The notes under the pieces were generated by a model, which searched no databases, was not told where the DNA came from, and was given only the letters and a program-made list of their open reading frames with translations. A DNA stretch of 62,732 bases, the filler included, from Coriobacteriales bacterium (lineage in GTDB: Bacteria; Actinomycetota; Coriobacteriia; Coriobacteriales; UBA8131), in the NCBI GenBank assembly GCA_031263105.1. It is 5 parts of 5 records of this genome, joined end to end, with 100 filler letters (N's around TTAATTAATTAA, not from the genome) between each part and the next. Parts side by side here need not be neighbours in the genome. Positions count along the whole stretch, not along the records: positions 26,635 to 53,917 come from JAISGJ010000211.1; 4 more parts are not named here. One strand, given 5' to 3'. The number at the start of each line of letters is the position of its first letter. The first letter of the stretch is position 1. Positions 43,573-55,735 of this stretch are shown piece after piece. The position numbers and the translations under genes were made by a program.

Positions 43573-44682
43573 CTAGATGCTTCCTTTGAGATGTTCGCCC
43601 AAATAGGGGATGGCAAACTCCAGCTCGCCGCGCCCCGGAGATGCGATGGCCCCTGCCTCGATAAGGCGACTTTTGTAGGTTTGGACATGCGAGGCGGAAG
43701 CCTTCAGTCTCGACCTGATGTCCGAGACTCGGGAAGCTCCCTCGTCTTTTGCCATGGCTGCGAGGAACCGCCTGTCCTCTTTCGACAAGAGCCTCAAGAC
43801 CGGAGCGTAGAGGTTGTCCACTAGGGCACGCTTCGAGTTAAGGATTGCCAAATCGACCAGGGTGGACGAAGCCATCCTATCCTCGCCAACCGAATCGACG
43901 ATGTTGTAGCCTATCAACTGCAGCAGATACGGATAGCCCTGCGTGGCTGCTGCTGCGGCGTCGATTGACGTGGCATCGATATCGATATGCAGATCCTGGA
44001 AGGCAACGAGGTAATATGCACTGACCTCGGCCAGCGGCAGTTCGCCCAACTGTTCCTTTTCCGCTCGGTTGAGGAACGTGAGCACCCTGTCGTTGAGAAC
44101 CGACGAAATTGCATCGGGCAATCCCGCCATAGCGACCGCGACATCCATCCCGTCGCCCACCAGTTCCTGGTAGGCTGTCGCAAACTCCTGCACCTCGTCG
44201 GAGGTGGAACGCACCTCGTCGACGAGGAACAGGATGCCCATGCCCCGCCTGTTAATCTCTTCGCAAAGCAACGCCAGCTTGGTCTGGAAGCCATAGTTGT
44301 TCTGAATTTCGTCAGAAAAGGTGAGCCCGAACGAGAAACCGAGTGCCCCGGCGCTGATGCCCTTTATCGGCTTCTTCCTGTCCAGCAGGTGGGCGCCTTG
44401 CAGCTGTGTCTTTTCGATAAGGTTGTCGAGCATCTTCTTGTTGGCAGTCACCCGTACTGGCATGAAGCCTCTGGCCTGCGCTCGGTCCGCCAGCTCAAGT
44501 AACAGCGCGGTCTTGCCCATACCGCGCTGCCCGACGAACAGGGTGGCACGATGCGGATGGCCAGGGTTCCCCGCGAGGCCTTCGATGAACCTCTCGATTA
44601 CCTGTTGCCGCCCGACGAACTGCTGGGGCTTGTTCCCAAACGTCGGGGAGAACACATTTGTGATTGCCACAGTGACCTCCAT
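43573..44682 (-). CDS. AAA ATPase with C-terminal wHTH
   Basis: NVFSPTFG, GQRGMGKT, LVDEV, TFLNRA, GYPYLLQL, RLIEAGAI. Confidence 0.88.
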   Translation of the reverse strand: MEVTVAITNVFSPTFGNKPQQFVGRQQVIERFIEGLAGNPGHPHRATLFVGQRGMGKTALLLELADRAQARGFMPVRVTANKKMLDNLIEKTQLQGAHLLDRKKPIKGISAGALGFSFGLTFSDEIQNNYGFQTKLALLCEEINRRGMGILFLVDEVRSTSDEVQEFATAYQELVGDGMDVAVAMAGLPDAISSVLNDRVLTFLNRAEKEQLGELPLAEVSAYYLVAFQDLHIDIDATSIDAAAAATQGYPYLLQLIGYNIVDSVGEDRMASSTLVDLAILNSKRALVDNLYAPVLRLLSKEDRRFLAAMAKDEGASRVSDIRSRLKASASHVQTYKSRLIEAGAIASPGRGELEFAIPYLGEHLKGSI

Positions 44683-44921
44683 CTCAACAAAAGACCTCGT
44701 AATAGCGCCTGTTTATTATTTCTTGTCAAATTTTATCATTCTTTATCATTTCTGGTCAAAGCGCGGCAATGTCCGTTGCCTCGAACGCCCGCCTCTCTGG
44801 TAAGGGGATGCGCTCAGGCGTCCGTGCAGGCGGGAACGTGTACAATAGGCCTATCAGCCGATTTTGAGGAGATGTTTAAGATTCGCAACCCCACTATCGT
44901 TCGTAAGGTGGTGCAGTGCCT

Positions 44922-46052
44922 ATGGAACTCCCCGATTTCAAGGTAACCGAAGAAATCGAAGGGCTTGCGCTTGAGATCGTCGAGATCTTGGAAGTGATGG
45001 AGAGGGTCGGCGACATCGACACCTTGTTCAAGTTGAGAAGGGCCGGTCGCATAAGCTCCATCCAGTCTTCGGTGGCGATAGAGGCCAATTCTTTGACCCT
45101 TGAGCAGGTCACCGACATCGTCAACGGCAGGAAGGTCATCGGGGATCCGAAGGAGATACAAGAGGTAAAGAACGCCTGGGAGGCCTACGAGGGCATCGGC
45201 GAGTATGATCCCTACTCACGGGACAGTTTTCTTGAGGCCCATAAGAGGATGTCGAGCAAGCTGGTACGGGAAGCCGGAAGGTTCAGGAGCGTGCAGGTCG
45301 GCGTCTACAAGGGCTTTGAGCTGATACACGACGGTGCCAGGCCGGAAGAGATCGAGCGGCTCATGGACATCGTTTTTGAGTGGGGCCTGAAGTCGAACGC
45401 CCACCCCCTCATCAAGAGCTGTGTCATGCATTTCCTCATCGAGTTCGTGCATCCTTTCGAGGACGGCAACGGACGGATGGGCAGGCTCTGGCAGACCGTC
45501 ATACTCGCTGACTGGAAGCCGATCCTCCAGTGGGTGCCCGTAGAGACGATGGTCTATCAGAACCAATATGGATACTATCAGGCCCTGCATACGTCGGAGG
45601 AGGCAGGCGACGCAGGGCCCTTCGTGGTGTTCATGCTCGATATCATCGCGTACACCCTTGGCGTGATCGTGAGGAGCAAGGCGCTGCCGCAGCGCAGGGT
45701 CGGCGAGACGGTGTCCATTCCCTATCTCCCGGACTTCTCGGGATTTCCCGACAACCGCAAGGGGCATATCGACGAAACGGGCAGCATTCCCGATAGGGCG
45801 GGCGCTCTTACCGATAAAATTCCCGATATATTTACCGATAAGCTGACCAAGGGAGAAAAGGAGTTCCTGTCTGCCATCTATCTGTACCTCTGCGAGCATG
45901 GGGAGATCAACAACTATCGGGCGCAGACGCTGACAGGCAAGTCGGCCGACAGCGCGAAGAAGTATCTTGCGAAGCTGGTGAGCGCAGGCCTTCTCCAGGC
46001 CGTCGGCAACAACAAGGCGAGGGTATACCGCTTCGCAGACTTCACGACGTAA
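44922..46052 (+). CDS. Fic-domain protein with C-terminal wHTH
   Basis: SSVAIEAN, intact HPFEDGNGRMGR motif, tetrapeptide-repeat linker, GNNKARVY. Confidence 0.93.
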   Translation: MELPDFKVTEEIEGLALEIVEILEVMERVGDIDTLFKLRRAGRISSIQSSVAIEANSLTLEQVTDIVNGRKVIGDPKEIQEVKNAWEAYEGIGEYDPYSRDSFLEAHKRMSSKLVREAGRFRSVQVGVYKGFELIHDGARPEEIERLMDIVFEWGLKSNAHPLIKSCVMHFLIEFVHPFEDGNGRMGRLWQTVILADWKPILQWVPVETMVYQNQYGYYQALHTSEEAGDAGPFVVFMLDIIAYTLGVIVRSKALPQRRVGETVSIPYLPDFSGFPDNRKGHIDETGSIPDRAGALTDKIPDIFTDKLTKGEKEFLSAIYLYLCEHGEINNYRAQTLTGKSADSAKKYLAKLVSAGLLQAVGNNKARVYRFADFTT

Positions 46053-46785: not shown

Positions 46786-48393
46786 TCACGCGGACTCGAT
46801 GACGCAGGAGTGCGTGCGGGTCTTCTTGTCGTAGCTTATGCCTGCGACCAGCACGGTGCCCGACCAGGCGGCCAACGAGTCCGGGTAGTGCCTGTCACGT
46901 ATCTGGCTTATGGCGGTCTCGGCGGCTGCGTCCCACTTCAGCTCCAGCAGCATCGCCGGGATACCGGATCGATTAGGGCGTGGGATGAAGGCAATATCGA
47001 CAAAGCCCTTGCCGCTCGGAAGCTCTCTGACCAGAGTGTAATAGTCTCTTGCGGCAAAAAGGGCCAAGGAGACCGTGTACGACAGCGCGGCCTCCGAGTT
47101 GTACGTGATGTGGGCGGTGTCCAGGTGTGCGGCCTCTATGCCCGCCGCGACGGATGCGGCGTCGCGCTCCCACAGGGCGTCGAGCAACGCCTTGGATGCC
47201 TGGACGGCTTTCATGACCTCTGGCCACCCGCCGTCCTCCATGGCCCTGCGGTACTCTGCGAGTATCTCTTTGTTGGGGACGAACACCTCGCCGGTCGGGG
47301 AGTCGAGGCCGTCGGTCTCGCTTGTCGGTGTCAGACCTAGGTAGCCCAGATGGACGAGCAGGGTCAAGACGTCGTCCGCCTTGGTGAAGGTGGTCATGTC
47401 GTTCTGGAACTTCGAGGTGTCTGTCGGCACCCTCTCGCCCGCGAGCAGTGCAGTCACCTTGTCGCGCAAGCCGTCGAAATCCAAATCGATGTAGACGCGC
47501 AGCGCCTCGTAGGTCTCGGTTCTCGTCCAATAGCCGCTCAGGTTGTTGTTCTGCAACGCCTTTACGACCGACCTTGGGTTGTAGATCTCGTAGCTGGTGC
47601 CGTTGCTGTCCTGTAGCAGGTAGCCGTTGTACATGACCCTGAAGTCTTCCGCATCGCGCCCGTAGTCTGCGCAAAGGGCCTGCACCTCGTCCTCGGTGAA
47701 CCCGGTGTATCGCGCCAGCTGCAGCTGATCCTCCATCGAGAACTCGTCGAACATGTTGAGCGCCGAATGTGCGCCGTACTTCTTTATCGGCAGTATGCCC
47801 GTCATGTAGGCCAAGGCGATGGAGGGCTTGTCCTTCAGCAGACTCCGCAGGAAGGAGAGGTAGTCCTTCTGCGCCCTCAGGTCGCCCTTCCATTCGCGAA
47901 AGACGCAGTCCCACTCATCGATGATCACGACGAAACGGAGCATGCCGTTCTCCGGCAGGCCCAGCCTTGAGAGGGTGTCTGTCAGGCCGCCTGCGCCACA
48001 GGCATCGCTCCCATAGGCTGCGAGCAGCTCGCTTCGGAGTTTCGACTGGAGCAGGGCGGTCATCTCCTGCATGGTCTGCGATTGCGTGAGAAAGTCGATC
48101 ATGTTGAGGTACAGGACATCGTAGCGGTTGATGCATCGCTCGAACGACGGATGGCCGGCAATCTCGAAAGGGGCAAACAGCTCACGGGAGTCAGCCGAAC
48201 GGTCGTAGTAGGCGCACAGCATCTCGGCGGCCATCGACTTGCCGAAACGACGGGGCCGACTGACGCAGAGGCACTTCTGCTCGGTTTCCAGCACTGAGTT
48301 GGCATAGGCGATAAGGCCGGTCTTGTCCACATAGATGGCGGAATTGACCGATTGCCTGAACCCTGCATTGCCCGGATTCAAATAGATGCCCAT
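46786..48393 (-). CDS. AAA-ATPase-like + PD-(D/E)XK nuclease domain protein
   Basis: YVDKT, RPRRFGKS, IIDEWD, MTGILPI, YNP, GFVDI, LELK, AISQI. Confidence 0.92.
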   Translation of the reverse strand: MGIYLNPGNAGFRQSVNSAIYVDKTGLIAYANSVLETEQKCLCVSRPRRFGKSMAAEMLCAYYDRSADSRELFAPFEIAGHPSFERCINRYDVLYLNMIDFLTQSQTMQEMTALLQSKLRSELLAAYGSDACGAGGLTDTLSRLGLPENGMLRFVVIIDEWDCVFREWKGDLRAQKDYLSFLRSLLKDKPSIALAYMTGILPIKKYGAHSALNMFDEFSMEDQLQLARYTGFTEDEVQALCADYGRDAEDFRVMYNGYLLQDSNGTSYEIYNPRSVVKALQNNNLSGYWTRTETYEALRVYIDLDFDGLRDKVTALLAGERVPTDTSKFQNDMTTFTKADDVLTLLVHLGYLGLTPTSETDGLDSPTGEVFVPNKEILAEYRRAMEDGGWPEVMKAVQASKALLDALWERDAASVAAGIEAAHLDTAHITYNSEAALSYTVSLALFAARDYYTLVRELPSGKGFVDIAFIPRPNRSGIPAMLLELKWDAAAETAISQIRDRHYPDSLAAWSGTVLVAGISYDKKTRTHSCVIESA

Positions 48394-48513: not shown

Positions 48514-50259
48514 TCAGAGCTGCGCCGCCGCCTTTCCGGCGAGGCGGCCGAAGGTGACGCTGCGGCCTGCGGCGTCGCCGGCCAGGAGGTTGACGTAGCT
48601 GATGCCGTAGTAGCCGCCCGAGCAGTCGCCTGCGGCGTAGAGGCCTTCGATGGGCTTGCCTGCCGCGTCCAGCACGCGCATGCCCGTGTCGATCCTGACC
48701 CCGTCGAGCGTGGTGATAAAGTAGCCGCCGCGCTGCCTCACGCCGTAGAAGGGGGCGGTGTCAAGGTGCGAGAGGCGATGCGCCTCCTTGCCGAAGTCGC
48801 TGTCTGCGCCGGTGTCCGCGAGCTCGTTGTAGCGGGCGACGGTGGCGGCAAAGGCGGTGGCAGGGATGTTGAGCCTCTCGGCGAGCTCCTCGACGGTGCC
48901 GGCCTCGACGATGACTCCGGCGGCCGCAAGCTCTGCGTTCATGCCCGCGACGACCGGGTCGAGGGGCATGACGGGCAGGGCGCCGTTGTTGTAGGGGTAC
49001 AGGCGCGAGCAGCCATGGGTCTCGAAGCGGAGGATGTCGGCCGCATAGTTCGAGTCCCAGACGGTGCAATAGGTCTTCTCCCTGATGCCGTTGGCGGTGT
49101 GGAGGATAAAGTCGTAGGGGCCGCTCTCGTTGGTGAAGCGGTTGCCGTCGAGGTCCACCTTGAGGAAGGGCTGCGAGCCCATCCAGAAGAAGTTGCCGTC
49201 GGCGACGTCGGTGGAATCAGGCGGTATGGCCCCGCGGTCGAAGATCATCCCCGCATGTACCGGATCCATGGCGGCGCCGGCCCAGAGCATGGCCTTGATG
49301 CCGTCGCCGGTACAGGACGGAAAGGCGAAGTGCACGCTGGCCATGTCGAGCGTGCCCGGCTGCAGGGCCTCGAGCATCTCGGTGTTGGCGGCATAGCCGC
49401 CTGTGCAGACGATGACGCCCTTGCTGGCGCGGTAGCGCACGACGCCCTCCTCGGTCTCTGCGTACAGGCCGGTGACGCGTTCGCCTTCCTGGGAAAGCTG
49501 GAGCATCGTGGTGCCCATATGCGCCTCGAGCCCCAGCCTCTTGCCGTAGTCCAGCAAGAACCCGCCGGTCATGGTGAAGCTTCCGACATTGGGGTCGGCA
49601 GGATCCGACCATTGCAGGGAGTGCCCCACGTCGTAATGGGGCGTGTTGAGCGTGCCCAGCGTGGATGTCTCGAACTTGAACTCGTAGCCGTTCTCGGCCA
49701 GACGCTCGGTGTACCAGTCGATGGCCTCGCCGGAGTGGTCCGCCCACACCTTGTAGAGGCGCTCGTCGCCATAGCCGGAGGAGTGGCGCGTCATCTCGTT
49801 GATGACGGTGAAGGCGTCGGGGTTGTCGCCCGTCTCCTGCTGCTGCGTGGAGTTGAGCGCGGCCAAGGTGTCGCGGACGCCGTTGCCGATCTCCGGTTGC
49901 TTGTCGATGAGGACGGTCTGCGCCCCCTCTTCGACGGCCGCGCAGGCGGCAAAGCACCCGGCGGTGCCGGCACCGACCACGAGGACCTCTGTCTCGACCG
50001 TCCTCACAACATCACCCTCGGCGATCTCTTGAGGGGCGCCCAGCCAATCGGCAGCGGCCCTGTTGCCGCCCGCGCCGCCGCCCTCGCCTGCGGCGGGCGT
50101 CTCTGGTGCGCTTGAAGCGGGGGCGCACCCCGCAAGTATCCCCGCGCCTGCTCCCAGCACACCTGCGCCGGCGGCAGCTACGAGAAAGCCACGCCTCGAC
50201 AGGCCCTCGCTGAACAGGCCCTCGCCGGTCTCCCTGTTCCGTTCTTGTTCTTTGTTCAT
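48514..50259 (-). CDS. Tat-exported lipoprotein FAD-dependent oxidoreductase (FAD_binding_2 family)
   Basis: SRRGFL, LAGC lipobox, GAGTAG, CTGGY, GNRFTNE, GLYAAGD, TFGRLAG. Confidence 0.92.
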   Translation of the reverse strand: MNKEQERNRETGEGLFSEGLSRRGFLVAAAGAGVLGAGAGILAGCAPASSAPETPAAGEGGGAGGNRAAADWLGAPQEIAEGDVVRTVETEVLVVGAGTAGCFAACAAVEEGAQTVLIDKQPEIGNGVRDTLAALNSTQQQETGDNPDAFTVINEMTRHSSGYGDERLYKVWADHSGEAIDWYTERLAENGYEFKFETSTLGTLNTPHYDVGHSLQWSDPADPNVGSFTMTGGFLLDYGKRLGLEAHMGTTMLQLSQEGERVTGLYAETEEGVVRYRASKGVIVCTGGYAANTEMLEALQPGTLDMASVHFAFPSCTGDGIKAMLWAGAAMDPVHAGMIFDRGAIPPDSTDVADGNFFWMGSQPFLKVDLDGNRFTNESGPYDFILHTANGIREKTYCTVWDSNYAADILRFETHGCSRLYPYNNGALPVMPLDPVVAGMNAELAAAGVIVEAGTVEELAERLNIPATAFAATVARYNELADTGADSDFGKEAHRLSHLDTAPFYGVRQRGGYFITTLDGVRIDTGMRVLDAAGKPIEGLYAAGDCSGGYYGISYVNLLAGDAAGRSVTFGRLAGKAAAQL

Positions 50260-50342
50260 GTGTGGCTCTCTTTCTTCCCGGTTTGTTTGCACTCCTGCTT
50301 TCGCACGGAGTGTGCGTGCTCTCTGCCCTGCAGGGCATCTAC

Positions 50343-50438
50343 AGGATAGAGGCAAAGGAAGCCCGCATCCTCACGTGTTTCCGGGTATTGTGTCTTGTGT
50401 GCGGGTGGATTGGGCACAAATACCCGATAATGGGTGAG
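50343..50438 (-). promoter_or_regulatory. Two 6-7-6 boxes and the -10 of the second flavoprotein gene
   Basis: CTCACG-N7-GGGTAT (50370-50388), ATACCC-N7-GGTGAG (50420-50438), minus-strand TATCCT at 50348. Confidence 0.6.
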
Positions 50439-50527: not shown

Positions 50528-52087
50528 ATGAACAGACCGGTTCCACTCTATCATTTCGGCTGGGCGTTCTTGCTCGCTTGGGTGTTCTGCGTGTTTTATG
50601 TCCAGGTGGTGGAGGGATACACGAGCGCGATGCCCGCAGTTCTCGGGGCATACGACAGGTTGACCACGCTGCTCCTCGTCGGCCTGCCTGTCCTGTCGTC
50701 CGTGGCGACCCTTCTTGCAATCGTGGGACTTGAGAGACGCTTCGGTTCGCCAGCCGTGCATCCGGTGCTCTTTTGGCTCGCCCCGCTCGCCACCGCTTTC
50801 TCGTGCCCGCTTCTGTTCATCCAGTACGAGAGCTTCGAGCTCACCTTGCTCCTCTTTACCGTAGGGGCCCTGCTCACCGGCTCAGGCAGCGGCTTTATGT
50901 GGGTGATGTGGGGAGAGTGCTATTCGAGGATCCCTCAGGACGAGGTCGAGCACATCGCACCCGTCTCCACGGCGGTTGCCGCAGTGCTGGTCTTGCTGGT
51001 GTCGTCCATGAGCGGATGGGCCCCGCTCCTCGTCGTCATGTGCTTCCCCCTGGCAAGCGGCGCGTGCCTGCTGCTTTCGCGGCGCGACGGCGCTGGCCGG
51101 GGAGCCTCGGTGGCATATGCGGGCGGGGCGGCAGGGCATCTGGCCGTGAGGAGCACACCTCCCCAGGTCGCCTCGACTCCCTGGGACGCCCTGCGCACTA
51201 TGGGACGCACAGGGTTCGGCATTTTGACTGCGTGCCTGTTCGTATGCCTGCTCGGCAGCTTTTGGGAGGCCCAGTCCGGCGAGCTCTACCTCCACCAGGC
51301 AGTCATCGTGGCAAGCATCCTGTTCACGATTGTCGTAGCCCTCGTCTCCACGAAGGGCCCGCGCAGGATATCGGTGACCTATCTCTTGCGGTGGATGTGC
51401 CCGGTGCTGGTGCTGGGCTTTGTGTCGGTCATCATCTGGGGGCCGAATGTCGGCAGCTATGTCGCCTACCTCATCGCCATCGCCTCGCGCTTCGCGTTCT
51501 GCCTCATCACGCAGATGTTCTTTGCGCGCTTCGCCGCATGCGGGCGCACCACCGCCGTGCAGGCCTACGGCTTCGGCTGGGCCTTTGTGCACCTGGGGGA
51601 CTTCGTCGGCGTGGTGGCCATCGTGGTGCTCGGTGCCTTGAGAACGGAGGGCGTGGTGGCCACAAACGAGACCGCCGCCGCATCCATCGCCGTGCTCACC
51701 GTCCTCACGATGTTTCTGATCGGCAGCACCAAGGGCTCTTCCCTCGACCGCGCCGTACAGGCCGGGGAGCCCTCGGATGCAGGGACGCTCGGGCAGATGC
51801 TTGCCGGGAAAGCCGGGGCGGTGCGGAGCGAGGGCGAGGGCGAGGGCGAGGGCGAGGGCGAGGGCCTTGAGGGCAGGATCCGCACTCTCTCCCGGTCCCA
51901 TGCCCTCACCCCCCGCGAGACGGAGGTGTTCGGGCTGCTCGCCCGGGGGCGCTCGGTGCCCTTCATCCGCGACGCCCTCGTGATATCGCGTGAGACGGCA
52001 GCAACCCACGTAAAGCACGTCTACGTCAAACTCGACGTGCACTCACGCCAGGAGCTCATCGACCTCGTGTACGGCGAAGGCACCTGA
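50528..52087 (+). CDS. Multi-TM LuxR-family one-component regulator
   Basis: ~12 TM segments, (GE)n linker, LTPRETEV...LARGRS...HVKHVYVKLDVHSRQELIDL. Confidence 0.93.
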   Translation: MNRPVPLYHFGWAFLLAWVFCVFYVQVVEGYTSAMPAVLGAYDRLTTLLLVGLPVLSSVATLLAIVGLERRFGSPAVHPVLFWLAPLATAFSCPLLFIQYESFELTLLLFTVGALLTGSGSGFMWVMWGECYSRIPQDEVEHIAPVSTAVAAVLVLLVSSMSGWAPLLVVMCFPLASGACLLLSRRDGAGRGASVAYAGGAAGHLAVRSTPPQVASTPWDALRTMGRTGFGILTACLFVCLLGSFWEAQSGELYLHQAVIVASILFTIVVALVSTKGPRRISVTYLLRWMCPVLVLGFVSVIIWGPNVGSYVAYLIAIASRFAFCLITQMFFARFAACGRTTAVQAYGFGWAFVHLGDFVGVVAIVVLGALRTEGVVATNETAAASIAVLTVLTMFLIGSTKGSSLDRAVQAGEPSDAGTLGQMLAGKAGAVRSEGEGEGEGEGEGLEGRIRTLSRSHALTPRETEVFGLLARGRSVPFIRDALVISRETAATHVKHVYVKLDVHSRQELIDLVYGEGT

Positions 52088-52138
52088 GCGGCTCGGCACA
52101 AGGATCCAAGGTTTCGGTGCAGAAGTTACGCTGGCCGT

Positions 52139-53065
52139 TCAGTCGTTGATGGCCTCGATGCCCAGGTGCTTCATCTCGTCGAGGTTCTCCCTCATGGTGC
52201 GCAGTTCCTCCGGGGTGTGGCCGGCCCAGTCGGAAACCTCGCCGACGATGCGGAGGGGTTCCCTCGAGCGGTAGGACCTTGTGACGTTGCCAGGGAACTT
52301 CTTGTCGGTCAGGTTGGGGTCGTCCTCGAACCCGCCTGTGGGCTCTACGACATAGACCCGTCCCTTGCCGTCTCCCTCGGCAAGCTCTGCCGCCCAGGCC
52401 ACCCCGTCGGGCAGCGAGGTGAAGTAGATGTAGTTTGCCTTTTCTCCTTCGCCGTAGTTGGATCTGTGGCCCGGTGACAGCAGGTCCCCGACGGACAGGT
52501 CCGCTTTCGTGCCGTGGTAGAACGGCCCCTTGTCGTCGATTCCCCGTGCCACCCGTATCTGTAGGCCTGCCATGACGTCGAGCGCCGCCTGATGCAGCTT
52601 CGGGTCGTGGCTCGCGGTGCACCTCGCATCGACGACGATCGGTGTCTCCGGCTGCGCCGTCTTCGCGAGGACGGCGTTCGAGATGACGCAGATGTTCGAG
52701 ACGAGGCCGACGAGCTCGATTCGCTCGAACGGTGTCGCCTTCAGATACTCGAACAGCTCGTCGGAGCCGAACGCGCCTTTACAAAAGCGCATGTCGTCTT
52801 CCTGGAGCAGTTTCGCCGTCTCGCCGTAAAGGTCGTGCCCGAAAGTCCCTTCGACGCAGTGCGGCACGGCAAGGCACTTCCCCTCCTGCGTCTTCAGGTA
52901 GTCCGCACCGTGCGTGTCGAACGTGAACATGACGGTGTCGCCGTCTGCGCGGTACCTCTCGATCTTCTCCGCAATCAGAGAGTCCAGGAGCTCTGCGCCC
53001 GGAAACCCGAGCGAGCCTGACACGAAGTCGTTCTGATAATCGACCACAATCAAGCATCTTTGCAT
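52139..53065 (-). CDS. Fusion: nicotinamidase-like cysteine hydrolase + NAD+-rifampin ADP-ribosyltransferase (Arr)
   Basis: VVDYQNDF, DTH, PHC, GLVSNICV, then FYHGTKADL, YFT, WAAELA, VEPTG, EDDPNLTDKKFPGN, RSYRS in one frame. Confidence 0.92.
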   Translation of the reverse strand: MQRCLIVVDYQNDFVSGSLGFPGAELLDSLIAEKIERYRADGDTVMFTFDTHGADYLKTQEGKCLAVPHCVEGTFGHDLYGETAKLLQEDDMRFCKGAFGSDELFEYLKATPFERIELVGLVSNICVISNAVLAKTAQPETPIVVDARCTASHDPKLHQAALDVMAGLQIRVARGIDDKGPFYHGTKADLSVGDLLSPGHRSNYGEGEKANYIYFTSLPDGVAWAAELAEGDGKGRVYVVEPTGGFEDDPNLTDKKFPGNVTRSYRSREPLRIVGEVSDWAGHTPEELRTMRENLDEMKHLGIEAIND

Positions 53066-53227
53066 CCTCGTTATCCCTTCCCTCATCCTCGGGCATCCGG
53101 ATCCCGGTGCTCCCTGTCGTCGAGCAGCGGGTTTTCAACCATACATCATGCGCTTCTTCCGCACTCGCCTGTGCGCGGCACAGGCGAGTGGCGCCTCGAA
53201 TGCCGACCCCTCCATTATAACGGTAGC

Positions 53228-53404
53228 GCCGCGCAGCTCGTGCTCATGGCCGGCGTCCTTGTGACGGCAGGCTTCGAATGGGAGGTCTCCCTGAGCCCGG
53301 CGCTGCTCTTCTCGGCATCTTTCCTGCTCTACATGGTCCAGGGGACAAGCTACCTTCTGCTCGAGGGGAGGGGGGCGCGACCCGATGCCGAGGCTGAGAA
53401 CTGA
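53228..53404 (+). pseudogene. Probable truncated or very small membrane-protein ORF preceding the XRE gene
   Basis: Two hydrophobic stretches in a frame overlapping the XRE start; no convincing 5' part. Confidence 0.35.
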
Positions 53405-53588
53405 GCTGAGGCGCTTCCGCCAGGAGCGCGGCATGCGCCAGGAGGAGCTGGCCGAGCTGGTGGGGGTCCGCCGAGAGACGGTCCTGCGCCTCGAGAAGGG
53501 CCTCTACAACCCCTCGCTGAGGCTCGCGATGGACGTCGCAAAGGTGTTCGGCGTGAGCGTTGAGGAGATGTTCTCGTTCGAGGAGTGA
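53385..53588 (+). CDS. XRE/Cro-family HTH regulator
   Basis: QEELAELVGVRRETVLRLEKGLYNPSLRLA...VEEMF. Confidence 0.93.
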   Translation: MPRLRTELRRFRQERGMRQEELAELVGVRRETVLRLEKGLYNPSLRLAMDVAKVFGVSVEEMFSFEE

Positions 53589-53824
53589 GAGGCGCTGTGC
53601 TCTGGGCAACCACTTTAGCGAAATCCCTCGTGTCAGTTCGGAGTACACATCTCCGCTTCCATTTTTGTTCAAGCGGCGATAAGGGGGTTTTAGCGGGGAC
53701 TCAATGATACAATGACTGCATGTCGTTTCTTCGACCCGGCTTTGAAGGCAAAAGCTCACGAATCGACCGAATGGAAACCCTCAATGGAGTTTTTCTTTAA
53801 ATAGAACTTTCCCAATGAGTGAGA

Positions 53825-53917
53825 CTATACCACTTGTTTTCGCGGCCTGCCCCGCTTCCTCTTCGGCGGCTCCTCCGCCTTGGGGATCAGGCCTAGGCTT
53901 TGGAGCACGAGCTCATG
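53825..53917 (-). mobile_element. 3' end of a gene cut by the contig end, possibly an IS transposase
   Basis: Manual translation HELVLQSLGLIPKAEEPPKRKRGRPRKQVV-stop; AT-rich flank; contig break. Confidence 0.4.
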
Positions 53918-54017: not shown

Positions 54018-54124
54018 CGACCGCGCCAGCGGTCGACTGTAGGGTGAAGGGTCTTTCGACCTGCGGTCGACCGCTGGCGCGGTCGAAGATTCCGCGACAG
54101 GTTCGGAATGACAGTGGGGGCGTG
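54018..54124. repeat. REP-like element, right part at the contig start
   Basis: CGACCGCTGGCGCGGTCG core and TCGGAATGACAGTGGGGGCGTG arm. Confidence 0.85.
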
Positions 54125-54211
54125 TCCAGCAACCCACCACTCGCGCCGACCGCACCGACCGCTGGGGCCTGCACTGGTAGCGCTCCCTGCTTTCCTATAC
54201 AATCGTATGCC

Positions 54212-55735
54212 ATGTCTGCCGTAGCAAAGAACAAGCTCATCATAGCGCTCTCCCTCGCGATGTTCCTCGCGGCGGTCGAGGGCACCATCGTGACGCTCGC
54301 GACCCCGACCATCGTCAAGGACCTCGCGGGCTTCGACCTCATCAGCCACGTCTTCTCCGTCTACCTGCTCACGGGCGCCTTGGCCTCGCCCGTCTACGGG
54401 AAGCTCAGCGACCTCTACGGTCGCAAGAGGACCCTCATGGTCGGCATCGCGGTGTTCCTTGCGGGCAGCGCGCTCTGCGGCCTTGCGCAGGGCATGGGCA
54501 TGCTCATCGCCTTCCGCGCCCTGCAGGGCATCGGCGCCGGGGCCATCTACACGGTGCCGATGATACTGGTCGGCGACGTCTTCCCCCTCCGGGAGCGCGG
54601 CAAGGTGCAGGGCTCCCTGAGCATGGTCTGGGGGATAGCGGGGCTGTTCGGCCCCTTCCTCGGCGGGCTGCTCATAGACCTCTTGTCGTGGCATTGGATA
54701 TTCTTCATCAACATCCCCTTCGGCATCCTCACGCTCGTCATCCTGCAGACGAGCCTCCATGAGGAGGCCCGCCACGAGAGGCGCCACATCGACTTCCCGG
54801 GCATCGTTGCACTGACCGGCGCGATGCTGGCTTTCCTCGCCATATTCCTGTTCGGGGAGACGGGCGGCACGCTCCTCACCGTGCGCAACGCCCTGCTGCT
54901 CCTCTCCTCCCTCGTGCTCCTGTTCGTCTTCTGGCGCATCGAGAGGCGTTCGCCCGAGCCGCTCGTCCCCCTCGACGTGCTCACGAGGTCGAGCGTGTTC
55001 GTGAACGTCATCTCGCTGTTCTTCATGGCCGCGCTCATCGGGATAGACGTCTATGCTCCCATCTATCTGCAGAACATCAAGGGCCTCACCCCTCTTCTCG
55101 CGGGGCTTGTGCTGCTGCCCATGTCGCTCTCCTGGATGTTGGCGTCGATCCCCGTCGGGCGCTTCATCGTGCGGTTCGGCGGAAAGCCCGTGCTCGGCGT
55201 CGGCACGGCCCTCGCGCTGGTGGGCATCGTGCCGCTCCTGTTCCTTACGAGCTCCAGCCCCGTCCCTCTGCTTGTCGCGCTCGTGTTCTTCCTGGGGATA
55301 GGCTTCAGCGTCTCCATGTCGACCCAGATGATGATAATCCAGGACTCGGTGGGCTTCGAGAAGCGCGGCTCGGCGGTCGCGGTGAACTCGCTGGTGCGCA
55401 ACCTCGGCCAGACCGTCGGCATCAGCGTCTTCGGCGCGCTCTTCAACCTGGGCATAGTCCGAGGCTTCGAGGCGGGAGGCATCGTCACCTACGACCTCGG
55501 CAACCTCTATGACCTGGGCTCCTATCAGCTGGGGGTGACCTGGGACCAGGTCGTCGTGGTGCTCACCGATGCGGTCCATGTGGTCTTTGCCGTCTTTGCC
55601 GCCGTCGTGGCGCTGTGCCTCCTCCTTGCGCTCGTCATGCCGAGGCCGGTCCTGGTGAGCCAGCCGAAGGGCGCGCCTCCTCTTCCCGAGGGGCCTGACG
55701 GGCCCAGGGCGGCCGAGGCGCCGGAAGCGCAGTAA
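54212..55735 (+). CDS. DHA2 (EmrB/QacA-like) MFS efflux transporter
   Basis: GKLSDLYGRKR, RALQGIGAG, GPFLGG, WHWIFFINIP; ~14 TM; TACAAT at 54197. Confidence 0.93.
   Translation: MSAVAKNKLIIALSLAMFLAAVEGTIVTLATPTIVKDLAGFDLISHVFSVYLLTGALASPVYGKLSDLYGRKRTLMVGIAVFLAGSALCGLAQGMGMLIAFRALQGIGAGAIYTVPMILVGDVFPLRERGKVQGSLSMVWGIAGLFGPFLGGLLIDLLSWHWIFFINIPFGILTLVILQTSLHEEARHERRHIDFPGIVALTGAMLAFLAIFLFGETGGTLLTVRNALLLLSSLVLLFVFWRIERRSPEPLVPLDVLTRSSVFVNVISLFFMAALIGIDVYAPIYLQNIKGLTPLLAGLVLLPMSLSWMLASIPVGRFIVRFGGKPVLGVGTALALVGIVPLLFLTSSSPVPLLVALVFFLGIGFSVSMSTQMMIIQDSVGFEKRGSAVAVNSLVRNLGQTVGISVFGALFNLGIVRGFEAGGIVTYDLGNLYDLGSYQLGVTWDQVVVVLTDAVHVVFAVFAAVVALCLLLALVMPRPVLVSQPKGAPPLPEGPDGPRAAEAPEAQ

Follow-up and report, generated by a model that had tools for sequence, protein, structure and literature searches.

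The window analysed here, 62,732 nucleotides (nt) from the genome of a Coriobacteriales bacterium (assembly GCA_031263105.1) presented as five joined parts, carries on its minus strand, at 52139-53065 and within the part taken from JAISGJ010000211.1, a gene in which a PncA-type nicotinamidase is joined in frame to Arr, the NAD+--rifampin ADP-ribosyltransferase. The two domains genuinely belong to one gene, which is neither a product of misassembly nor unique; it is rare but recurrent. Each part is an ordinary representative of a well-known family; what is new, and apparently undescribed, is their combination. We favour, on balance, the reading that the product is a bifunctional enzyme whose nicotinamidase half would recycle the by-product of the Arr half, both the activities and their coupling being deduced from sequence.

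The locus forms one open reading frame (ORF) of 315 amino acids (aa), 52139..53086 on the minus strand. We place the start at 53065, because most of 24 aligned homologues begin there; the window protein opens with MQRCLIVVDYQ, in agreement with the shared beginning M-x-R/K-C-L-I-V-V-D-Y-Q. The seven in-frame codons up to the upstream ATG (MREGITR, 53066-53086, minus strand) provide a possible alternative start that is probably unused. The gene so defined has 308 codons and a TGA stop at 52139-52141; positions of Pfam and NCBIfam matches are given in the 315-aa numbering, and residue names elsewhere follow the 308-aa numbering. The Isochorismatase profile PF00857 matched residues 11-175 (profile positions 2-166 of 175, 72.5 bits against a cut-off of 27), and the Arr-ms profile PF12120 matched residues 189-287 over 99 of 99 profile positions (159.6 bits against 25). 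The NCBIfam equivalog NF033144 (rifampin_ARR) covered residues 187-315, or model positions 3-131 of 131, at 190.5 bits against 130. From these profiles, together with alignment to solved nicotinamidases, fold matches and the match to the Arr-ms structure 2hw2, we delimit a PncA-type nicotinamidase domain at aa 1-172 (52550-53065) and an Arr domain at aa 181-308 (52142-52525), both on the minus strand. They are separated by a linker of eight residues, A173-G180 (ARGIDDKG, 52526-52549, minus strand); in stand-alone relatives the chain terminates immediately ahead of this linker, near aa 173, and in a 25-row alignment its DxGPFYHGT end shows no variation. The initial annotation had described a single in-frame ORF with a junction near 52540, which agrees with the position of the linker and with the presence of both domains above their Pfam cut-offs.

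The motifs that it had listed (the Asp/Lys/Cys triad, DTH, PHC, FYHGT, YFT and EDDPN) were likewise all located in the protein. In the nicotinamidase half, the predicted triad consists of D9 (53039-53041), K96 (52778-52780) and C126 (52688-52690), and motif mapping gives D50 and H52 (DTH) and H69 (PHC) as metal ligands, all on the minus strand. D9/K96/C126, D50/H52/H69 and the PHC/GTxG segment align with Bacillus subtilis 5zn8, Streptococcus mutans 3s2s, Staphylococcus aureus 6kua and Streptococcus pneumoniae 3o90, in which we take the corresponding residues to be the catalytic ones. For the other half, two papers (PMC8492726, PMC6092378) give as Arr motifs HGT (with H19), SN[YF], Y49, the catalytic D84 in DPN[VL] and the rifampin-contacting helix M[RK][DE]xL. 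The window protein matches this set with H184 in FYHGT (52514-52516), SNY at 202-204, Y214 in YIYFT, the predicted catalytic D249 (52319-52321) in DPNL at aa 249-252, within EDDPN, and the helix MRENL starting at M291, again on the minus strand.

Searches against solved structures pointed to the same two families. The C-terminal half aligned end to end with Arr-ms, a sequence search covering residues 11-142 of 2hw2 with an E value of 1.6e-47, and Foldseek comparison of the predicted model with 2hw2 gave 54% identity, a target TM-score (TMt) of 0.89 and a root-mean-square deviation of 2.9 over 134 columns. The N-terminal half reached TMt values of 0.80-0.83 against PncA structures (0.80-0.82 for B. 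subtilis PncA 5zn8); ranks 4-10 of the Foldseek results were PncA-type chains throughout, and the range of TMt to PncA was 0.69-0.83. Its top sequence matches among solved chains were 5zn8, 6a8l, 3s2s, 6kua and 3o90, at an identity to solved nicotinamidases of only 23-29%. Among the 71 related loci that lack an intact fusion (L024-L094), 35 have pncB beside the PncA gene, usually directly downstream (for example L035 and L091); the stand-alone relatives of the N-terminal half are probably genuine salvage genes. Assignment of this half to the nicotinamidase branch of the isochorismatase superfamily is supported, in that its best solved matches in sequence and fold are PncA and pncB adjoins so many of the related genes. 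An AlphaFold2 model of the whole chain, built from an alignment of 145 rows (the window protein, 43 fused, 52 PncA and 49 Arr sequences), had a mean predicted local distance difference test score (pLDDT) of 93.4, with about 90 in the linker block, and a predicted TM-score (pTM) of 0.86. For a protein of 172 plus 128 residues, this pTM is a weak hint that the domains may hold a defined mutual orientation. No solved chain spanned both halves in the Foldseek search (best query TM-score 0.51). Prediction of a complex between the halves as separate chains (residues 8-181 and 186-315) scored 0.02 against a mark of 0.32, with controls not run, and speaks neither for nor against docking.

That the two domains belong to one gene is evident both from its recurrence and from independent assemblies. 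When 8000 candidates were scored in a protein homologue search and the 120 best clusters were examined, both Pfam domains were present in 46 of them (the first 46, P0001-P0046), at 66-100% identity. A locus search among 185,579 species genomes, in which the best 80 of 511 relatives were kept, returned an intact full-length fusion at nine loci (L015-L023), all in metagenome-assembled genomes (MAGs) labelled Bacillota and including Eubacteriales, Family XIII, Gracilibacteraceae, Oscillospiraceae, Syntrophomonadaceae and Thermacetogenium. The MAG codes encountered (Im510, Kf353, Nc350, Gx485, Nm470, Md513, GLO_ and EPI_) presumably denote termite and millipede gut bins, and termite gut metagenome is the label of the sequencing runs in which the stretch occurs. 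Support across the junction was assessed on Logan contigs rather than raw reads. Exact contigs from run X1, possibly the source sample, tile the region, and one of 372 bases (52302-52673) bridges the junction with 0 differences; a 1249-base contig from X2, a different sample, differs from the window over 52139-53068 by 97 substitutions and has 0 gaps. Indels are listed for none of the runs. The initial annotation had named, among other checks, read support across the junction and a search for the Isochorismatase plus Arr-ms architecture, and had considered that the fusion might prove a one-off with a dead domain or be broken by a stop or frameshift. The contigs bridge the linker without a stop, frameshift or indel, the architecture recurs in the 46 clusters, and the motifs are kept.

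Residue conservation and substitution patterns suggest that both halves have stayed intact. Among 44 fused proteins, the Arr residues H184, G185, T186, N203, Y214, D249, P250 and N251 are each present in all 44, S202 in 43 and Y204 in 41; at position 291, 33 proteins have M and 11 have W. In the nicotinamidase half, D9, D50, H52 and H69 are each invariant (44/44), K96 is found in 43 and C126 in 41, the latter being replaced by S in two proteins and by G in one. Nei-Gojobori estimates were made on 36 pairs among nine genes, namely that of the window and those of eight named loci, L021 being left out because of its N. In nine of these pairs, which compare the window gene with the named loci, the ratio of nonsynonymous to synonymous change (dN/dS) was about 0.05-0.17 in each half wherever dS was defined, with dS near or beyond saturation. 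Median dN was 0.125 for the PncA half and 0.208 for the Arr half; many dS values exceeded 1 or were undefined, and the Nei-Gojobori medians are rough because undefined dS values were kept in them as -1. Purifying selection on both halves is supported by these data. The apparent 403-aa ORF of L021, considered as a candidate for a third domain, was rejected, as it is caused by a run of N.

The family is narrow. In a search of 1.84 billion representatives at 50% identity, run with no word index, 4940 matches were obtained at E <= 0.001. Among the best 150 representatives only P0045 (427.6 bits) has both halves, the next match being a tandem Arr at 260.8 bits, and the fusion family can therefore be taken as a single 50% cluster. 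No match spanning both halves was found in 60 relatives of the host (0/60) or in 400 further genomes of the same class (0/400). The host itself is placed in Coriobacteriia by its pncB, whose best named relatives are from Coriobacteriales MAGs (74% and 69% identity). Published names do little to reveal the architecture: 22 of the 46 fused clusters carry a source name and 24 carry none, and the names refer to the nicotinamidase half only in 21 cases, to the Arr half only in one and to both in none. Such fused genes are easily overlooked in resistome surveys.

With respect to origin, a quick tree of the Arr domain grouped all 45 fused rows in one clade with a Shimodaira-Hasegawa-like approximate likelihood ratio test (SH-aLRT) value of 80. 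Compared with a repeat search that had four extra rows, an Arr tree constrained to hold the fused sequences together was better by 50.5 log-likelihood units and was not rejected by the approximately unbiased test (p-AU 0.776), a result that is compatible with a clade and is no proof of one. In the PncA-domain tree, fused and unfused sequences are interleaved in an 83-row clade (SH-aLRT 99; 45 fused, 38 not). Pairwise distances in one half track those in the other (r = 0.67), a correlation that none of 999 permutations reached. The window copy sits in a starred four-row clade with P0002, P0047 and P0048, nested with weak support among Bacillota copies (P0009, identical to L017). We infer that the gene arose once, when arr was joined to the housekeeping pncA of anaerobic Clostridia, that its halves were then inherited as a unit, and that a later single-gene transfer took place between Bacillota and Coriobacteriia, in one direction or the other, along with repeated loss of the Arr half.

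The GC content of the gene is close to that of its host in most genomes (62.1% versus 63.2% here), L022 being an exception at 57% versus 44%. Nothing was found in common between loci outside the gene: no 9-mer is shared by three or more of the nine fused loci, upstream or downstream, and there is no synteny beyond the gene itself between the window and the family-relative loci L004, L005, L009 and L011. None of 72,556 plasmid records carries the gene; coverage of 80% or more of the protein was reached by 0 of the 1767 that matched it and by 0 of 13 matching phage records. The agreement in GC, with no linked neighbour, flank, plasmid or phage, shows signs of long residence and of movement as a single gene. 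A second allele, about 8-10% divergent, occurs in both X1 and X2; in X1 it is represented by four contigs with 17/184, 29/372, 24/248 and 17/190 differences. Similarity between contigs of this variant and the window breaks off at both gene ends, to within a few bases, so that the gene has a different context there, consistent with its having moved alone. On unannotated human faecal records named 'Bacteriophage sp.' (H13, MT835572.1, and 12 others), the PncA half has stand-alone homologues with identities of up to 57%.

The function that we propose joins two familiar reactions. The C-terminal Arr would move ADP-ribose from NAD+ to a rifamycin, leaving the drug inactive and releasing nicotinamide, which the N-terminal metal-dependent Cys-hydrolase would turn into nicotinate and ammonia; host PncB could then bring the nicotinate back into NAD synthesis by the Preiss-Handler route. 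Fusion would provide 1:1 co-expression and proximity of the producer and the consumer of nicotinamide. The expected benefits are a lower cost to the pyridine pool per detoxification and a transferase at which nicotinamide does not accumulate, proximity either relieving product inhibition or retaining the diffusible pyridine ring in the cell. We infer the rifamycin substrate, both enzymatic activities and the benefit of coupling.

The genome of the host is consistent with such a route. It is a MAG of 250 contigs, 86% complete, and it encodes a pncB well above threshold (NF006695, 556.9 bits versus 469; TIGR01513, 517.8 versus 297.4), so that nicotinate can re-enter NAD synthesis. Within this 86% of the genome, no NadA match was found, and the fusion gene is the only match to PF00857 or PF12120. 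The fused gene is probably the cell's only nicotinamidase, judging from these profile matches, and the host may depend on pyridine salvage.

Pairing of a nicotinamidase with an NAD consumer has precedents, among them the functional nicotinamidase-sirtuin pair Pnc1 and Sir2 of yeast. The window protein resembles the PncA/CobB pair of Escherichia coli, in which the nicotinamidase clears nicotinamide from an NAD consumer; according to PMC5734772, loss of the nicotinamidase resembled loss of CobB, an NAD-consuming sirtuin subject to inhibition by nicotinamide. Unlike PncA and CobB, which are separate proteins and involve a deacylase, the present case is one polypeptide with an antibiotic-modifying ADP-ribosyltransferase. 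By analogy with CobB, Arr may be inhibited by nicotinamide. In Arr assays, nicotinamide formation has been used to gauge product yield (PMC6092378).

Each half, taken by itself, is conventional. The Arr half resembles Arr-ms of Mycolicibacterium smegmatis (2HW2) and the plasmid-borne Arr-2 (9IBA) in its HGT, SNY, Tyr and DPNL motifs and MRExL helix, and differs from them in belonging to a 308-aa protein where a linker of eight residues, leading to an enzyme of 172 residues, takes the place of the Arr N-terminus, and in its hosts, which are strict-anaerobe gut-type Clostridia and Coriobacteriia. The nicotinamidase half shares the fold of PncA from B. subtilis (5ZN8), S. pneumoniae (3O90) and Mycobacterium tuberculosis (3PL1), with triad and metal site aligned; unlike stand-alone PncA, it is fused at its C-terminus to an NAD-consuming transferase, and pncB is absent from the fetched flanks of the nine fused loci. 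Known functional Arr proteins are stand-alone and of about 140-150 aa, according to PMC8492726; this size is usual for characterised members and is no prerequisite of catalysis. The view expressed in the initial annotation that Arr is normally stand-alone is roughly true, and it needs to be qualified, since a scan of 16 representatives also showed tandem Arr domains and Arr preceded by Imm5-like, AHSA1, GNAT, SDR or Zn-ADH domains, with a full Arr-ms domain at the C-terminus. The tandem Arr-Arr proteins (P0075 and P0121, 239-245 aa) may be real genes or merged calls, and one of them bears the name NAD(+)--rifampin ADP-ribosyltransferase of Leptolyngbya sp. NIES-2104. The remaining fusions are metagenomic and may again be real or merged calls: Imm5-like P0159, AHSA1/SRPBCC P0134, GNAT P0140, SDR P0144 and Zn-ADH P0202. 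The partner domains of these other fusions do not act on the product of the Arr reaction. The architecture had also been put forward as one not known to be characterised, and we found no published description of a PncA-Arr fusion in a full-text search of the literature, although long proteins of this kind might figure in the supplementary Tables S1 or S2 of PMC8492726.

Several observations weigh against the bifunctional reading or loosen parts of it. The NCBIfam equivalog for PncA, NF008623 (PRK11609), which we take to be built on E. coli-type PncA, failed with 18.8 bits against 174 and covered residues 8-63 only. The nucleophilic Cys of the nicotinamidase is lost in 3 of the 44 fused proteins, one of which also lacks the Lys. 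Conversely, the Arr half, as read from the aligned loci, is deleted or broken in at least four relatives that retain PncA: in L004 (G005:C74, from the host's own family) an in-frame deletion joins the linker to the last 33 Arr residues, as in P0047; P0049 retains only the last nine Arr residues; P0063 stops inside the linker; and L024 is frameshifted, with HGT turned into HSA and a stop about 30 codons later. Because each half is dispensable in this way, coupling is not obligatory. The clade that would indicate a single origin has an SH-aLRT of only 80 and was broken up in a repeat with four extra rows. In the fetched flanks, no neighbour is common to the nine fused loci, pncB adjoins none of them (0/9), and they show no NAD or rifamycin context. 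The host MAG carries 6.5% contamination. In the literature consulted, no paper on inhibition of Arr by nicotinamide was found, and rifamycin exposure of these gut anaerobes is undocumented, a paper on termite actinobacteria naming rifamycin only in its reference list.

In the main alternative, arr landed behind a housekeeping pncA whose stop was lost, and the halves work independently, the fusion lasting only because PncA is needed and Arr occasionally useful, with no coupling and no NAD-saving benefit. This is a serious rival because the halves are dispensable, no NAD or drug context exists except at L020, Arr fuses elsewhere and exposure is undocumented; we regard it as possible, if on the doubtful side. 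The interleaving of fused and stand-alone forms in the N-domain tree (the clade with SH-aLRT 99), the Arr remnants in P0047, P0049, P0063 and L024 with PncA kept, and the position of the gene as the only isochorismatase-family match in its host are all as this scenario would have it, as are the lack of conserved neighbours at fused loci and the occurrence of Arr behind unrelated domains, which suggests ready fusion. It accounts less well for a fused state that persists to 66% identity and through saturated synonymous change with both halves constrained, in hosts from two phyla and at loci whose GC ranges from 42 to 63%, and with a short linker whose DxGPFYHGT end is invariant. Moreover, the chemistry is matched, the product of one half being the substrate of the other, which is untrue of the other Arr fusions seen.

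The remaining alternatives concern the identity of one half or the reality of the gene. The initial annotation had raised a non-antibiotic role for Arr, in which this half would modify a small molecule or macromolecule other than a rifamycin and serve an NAD-linked housekeeping or signalling function. Undocumented exposure in the habitat and the lack of resistance context at 8 of 9 fused loci would fit such a role, but the protein passes the equivalog NF033144 by 60 bits, is 54% identical to Arr-ms, which was crystallised with rifampin, and keeps the rifampin-binding motifs, described in PMC8492726 and PMC6092378, as DPNL for DPN[VL] and MRENL for M[RK][DE]xL; a different target appears improbable. 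It is still less probable that the N-terminal half is another amidase of the isochorismatase family or an inactive scaffold: the low identity to solved nicotinamidases (23-29%), the PRK11609 score of 18.8 bits versus 174 and the missing nucleophile in 3 of 44 proteins leave some room for this, set against a D-K-C triad, a D-x-H...H metal site and PHC/GTxG that align with PncA structures, nicotinamidases that outrank other family members in both sequence and fold searches, and the 35 of 71 related stand-alone genes adjoined by pncB. As for an artefact of assembly or gene calling that merged two neighbours through a missed stop or a chimeric contig, the source is indeed a fragmented MAG (250 contigs, 6.5% contamination) and the check was made on contigs; even so, this explanation is effectively refuted by the same in-frame architecture in 46 clusters from five sources and in nine independently assembled named genomes, by the exact junction-bridging contig, and by a 10%-divergent contig from another sample with 0 gaps over the whole gene.

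Weighing these alternatives, we retain the bifunctional enzyme with a nicotinamidase half that would recycle the Arr by-product as the likelier account. A more ambitious version, advanced only tentatively and rather unlikely to hold in every part, would see a self-recycling resistance enzyme of NAD-auxotrophic gut anaerobes, with the nicotinamidase docked on Arr, nicotinamide caught at its source, no product inhibition and a pyridine pool left near-neutral; if true, this would be the first antibiotic-modifying enzyme with its own cofactor-salvage module. If coupling as such is real, it would mean that an antibiotic-modifying enzyme can consume cofactor at a cost high enough for a built-in salvage step to be selected, and the fusion would be a ready natural tool with which to quantify product inhibition and NAD economy in Arr-type resistance. 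The family is also a clean, small illustration of a domain fusion that has spread across phyla and has partly decayed more than once.

Upstream of the gene, the perfect minus-strand TATAAT reported in the initial annotation is present at 53214-53219, 149 nt before the start. It is a putative element identified by sequence match and stands as a lone hexamer, because a promoter scan of 51950-53650 found 0 acceptable -35/-10 pairs; a terminator scan of the same span gave 0 sites. A perfect inverted repeat of 13 nt with a 3-nt spacer lies at 53162-53190, in the intergenic stretch that separates the fusion gene from a divergently oriented small membrane ORF and XRE-type helix-turn-helix (HTH) gene (53385-53588); it may be an operator. 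This repeat was not found upstream of the ten other loci examined, none of which has a perfect inverted repeat of at least 8 nt there; we saw no conserved upstream palindrome, just as no rifamycin-associated palindrome had been noticed before. One fused locus, L020 (3746-5984, Bacillota MAG), has a TetR-family regulator and a divergent major facilitator superfamily (MFS) transporter immediately ahead of the fused gene, the sole resistance-like context among the nine. An MFS transporter is also encoded in the window at 54044-55735, but it need not be adjacent to the fusion, because the contig of the latter (G000:C162) ends at 53917 and is followed by a run of N. On the same contig, a FAD_binding_2 flavoprotein reductase (48514-50355, minus strand) adjoins a multi-pass membrane LuxR/GerE regulator (50528-52087, plus strand) in which a (Gly-Glu)n run precedes the HTH; we take such pairs to be typical of Eggerthellaceae-like genomes. 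Further upstream on this contig are a weak AAA_16-like ATPase below the Pfam cut-off (43573-44682, minus strand), a Fic/DOC-domain protein (44916-46052, plus strand) and a predicted protein with AAA-ATPase_like and PDDEXK_9 nuclease domains (46786-48393, minus strand).

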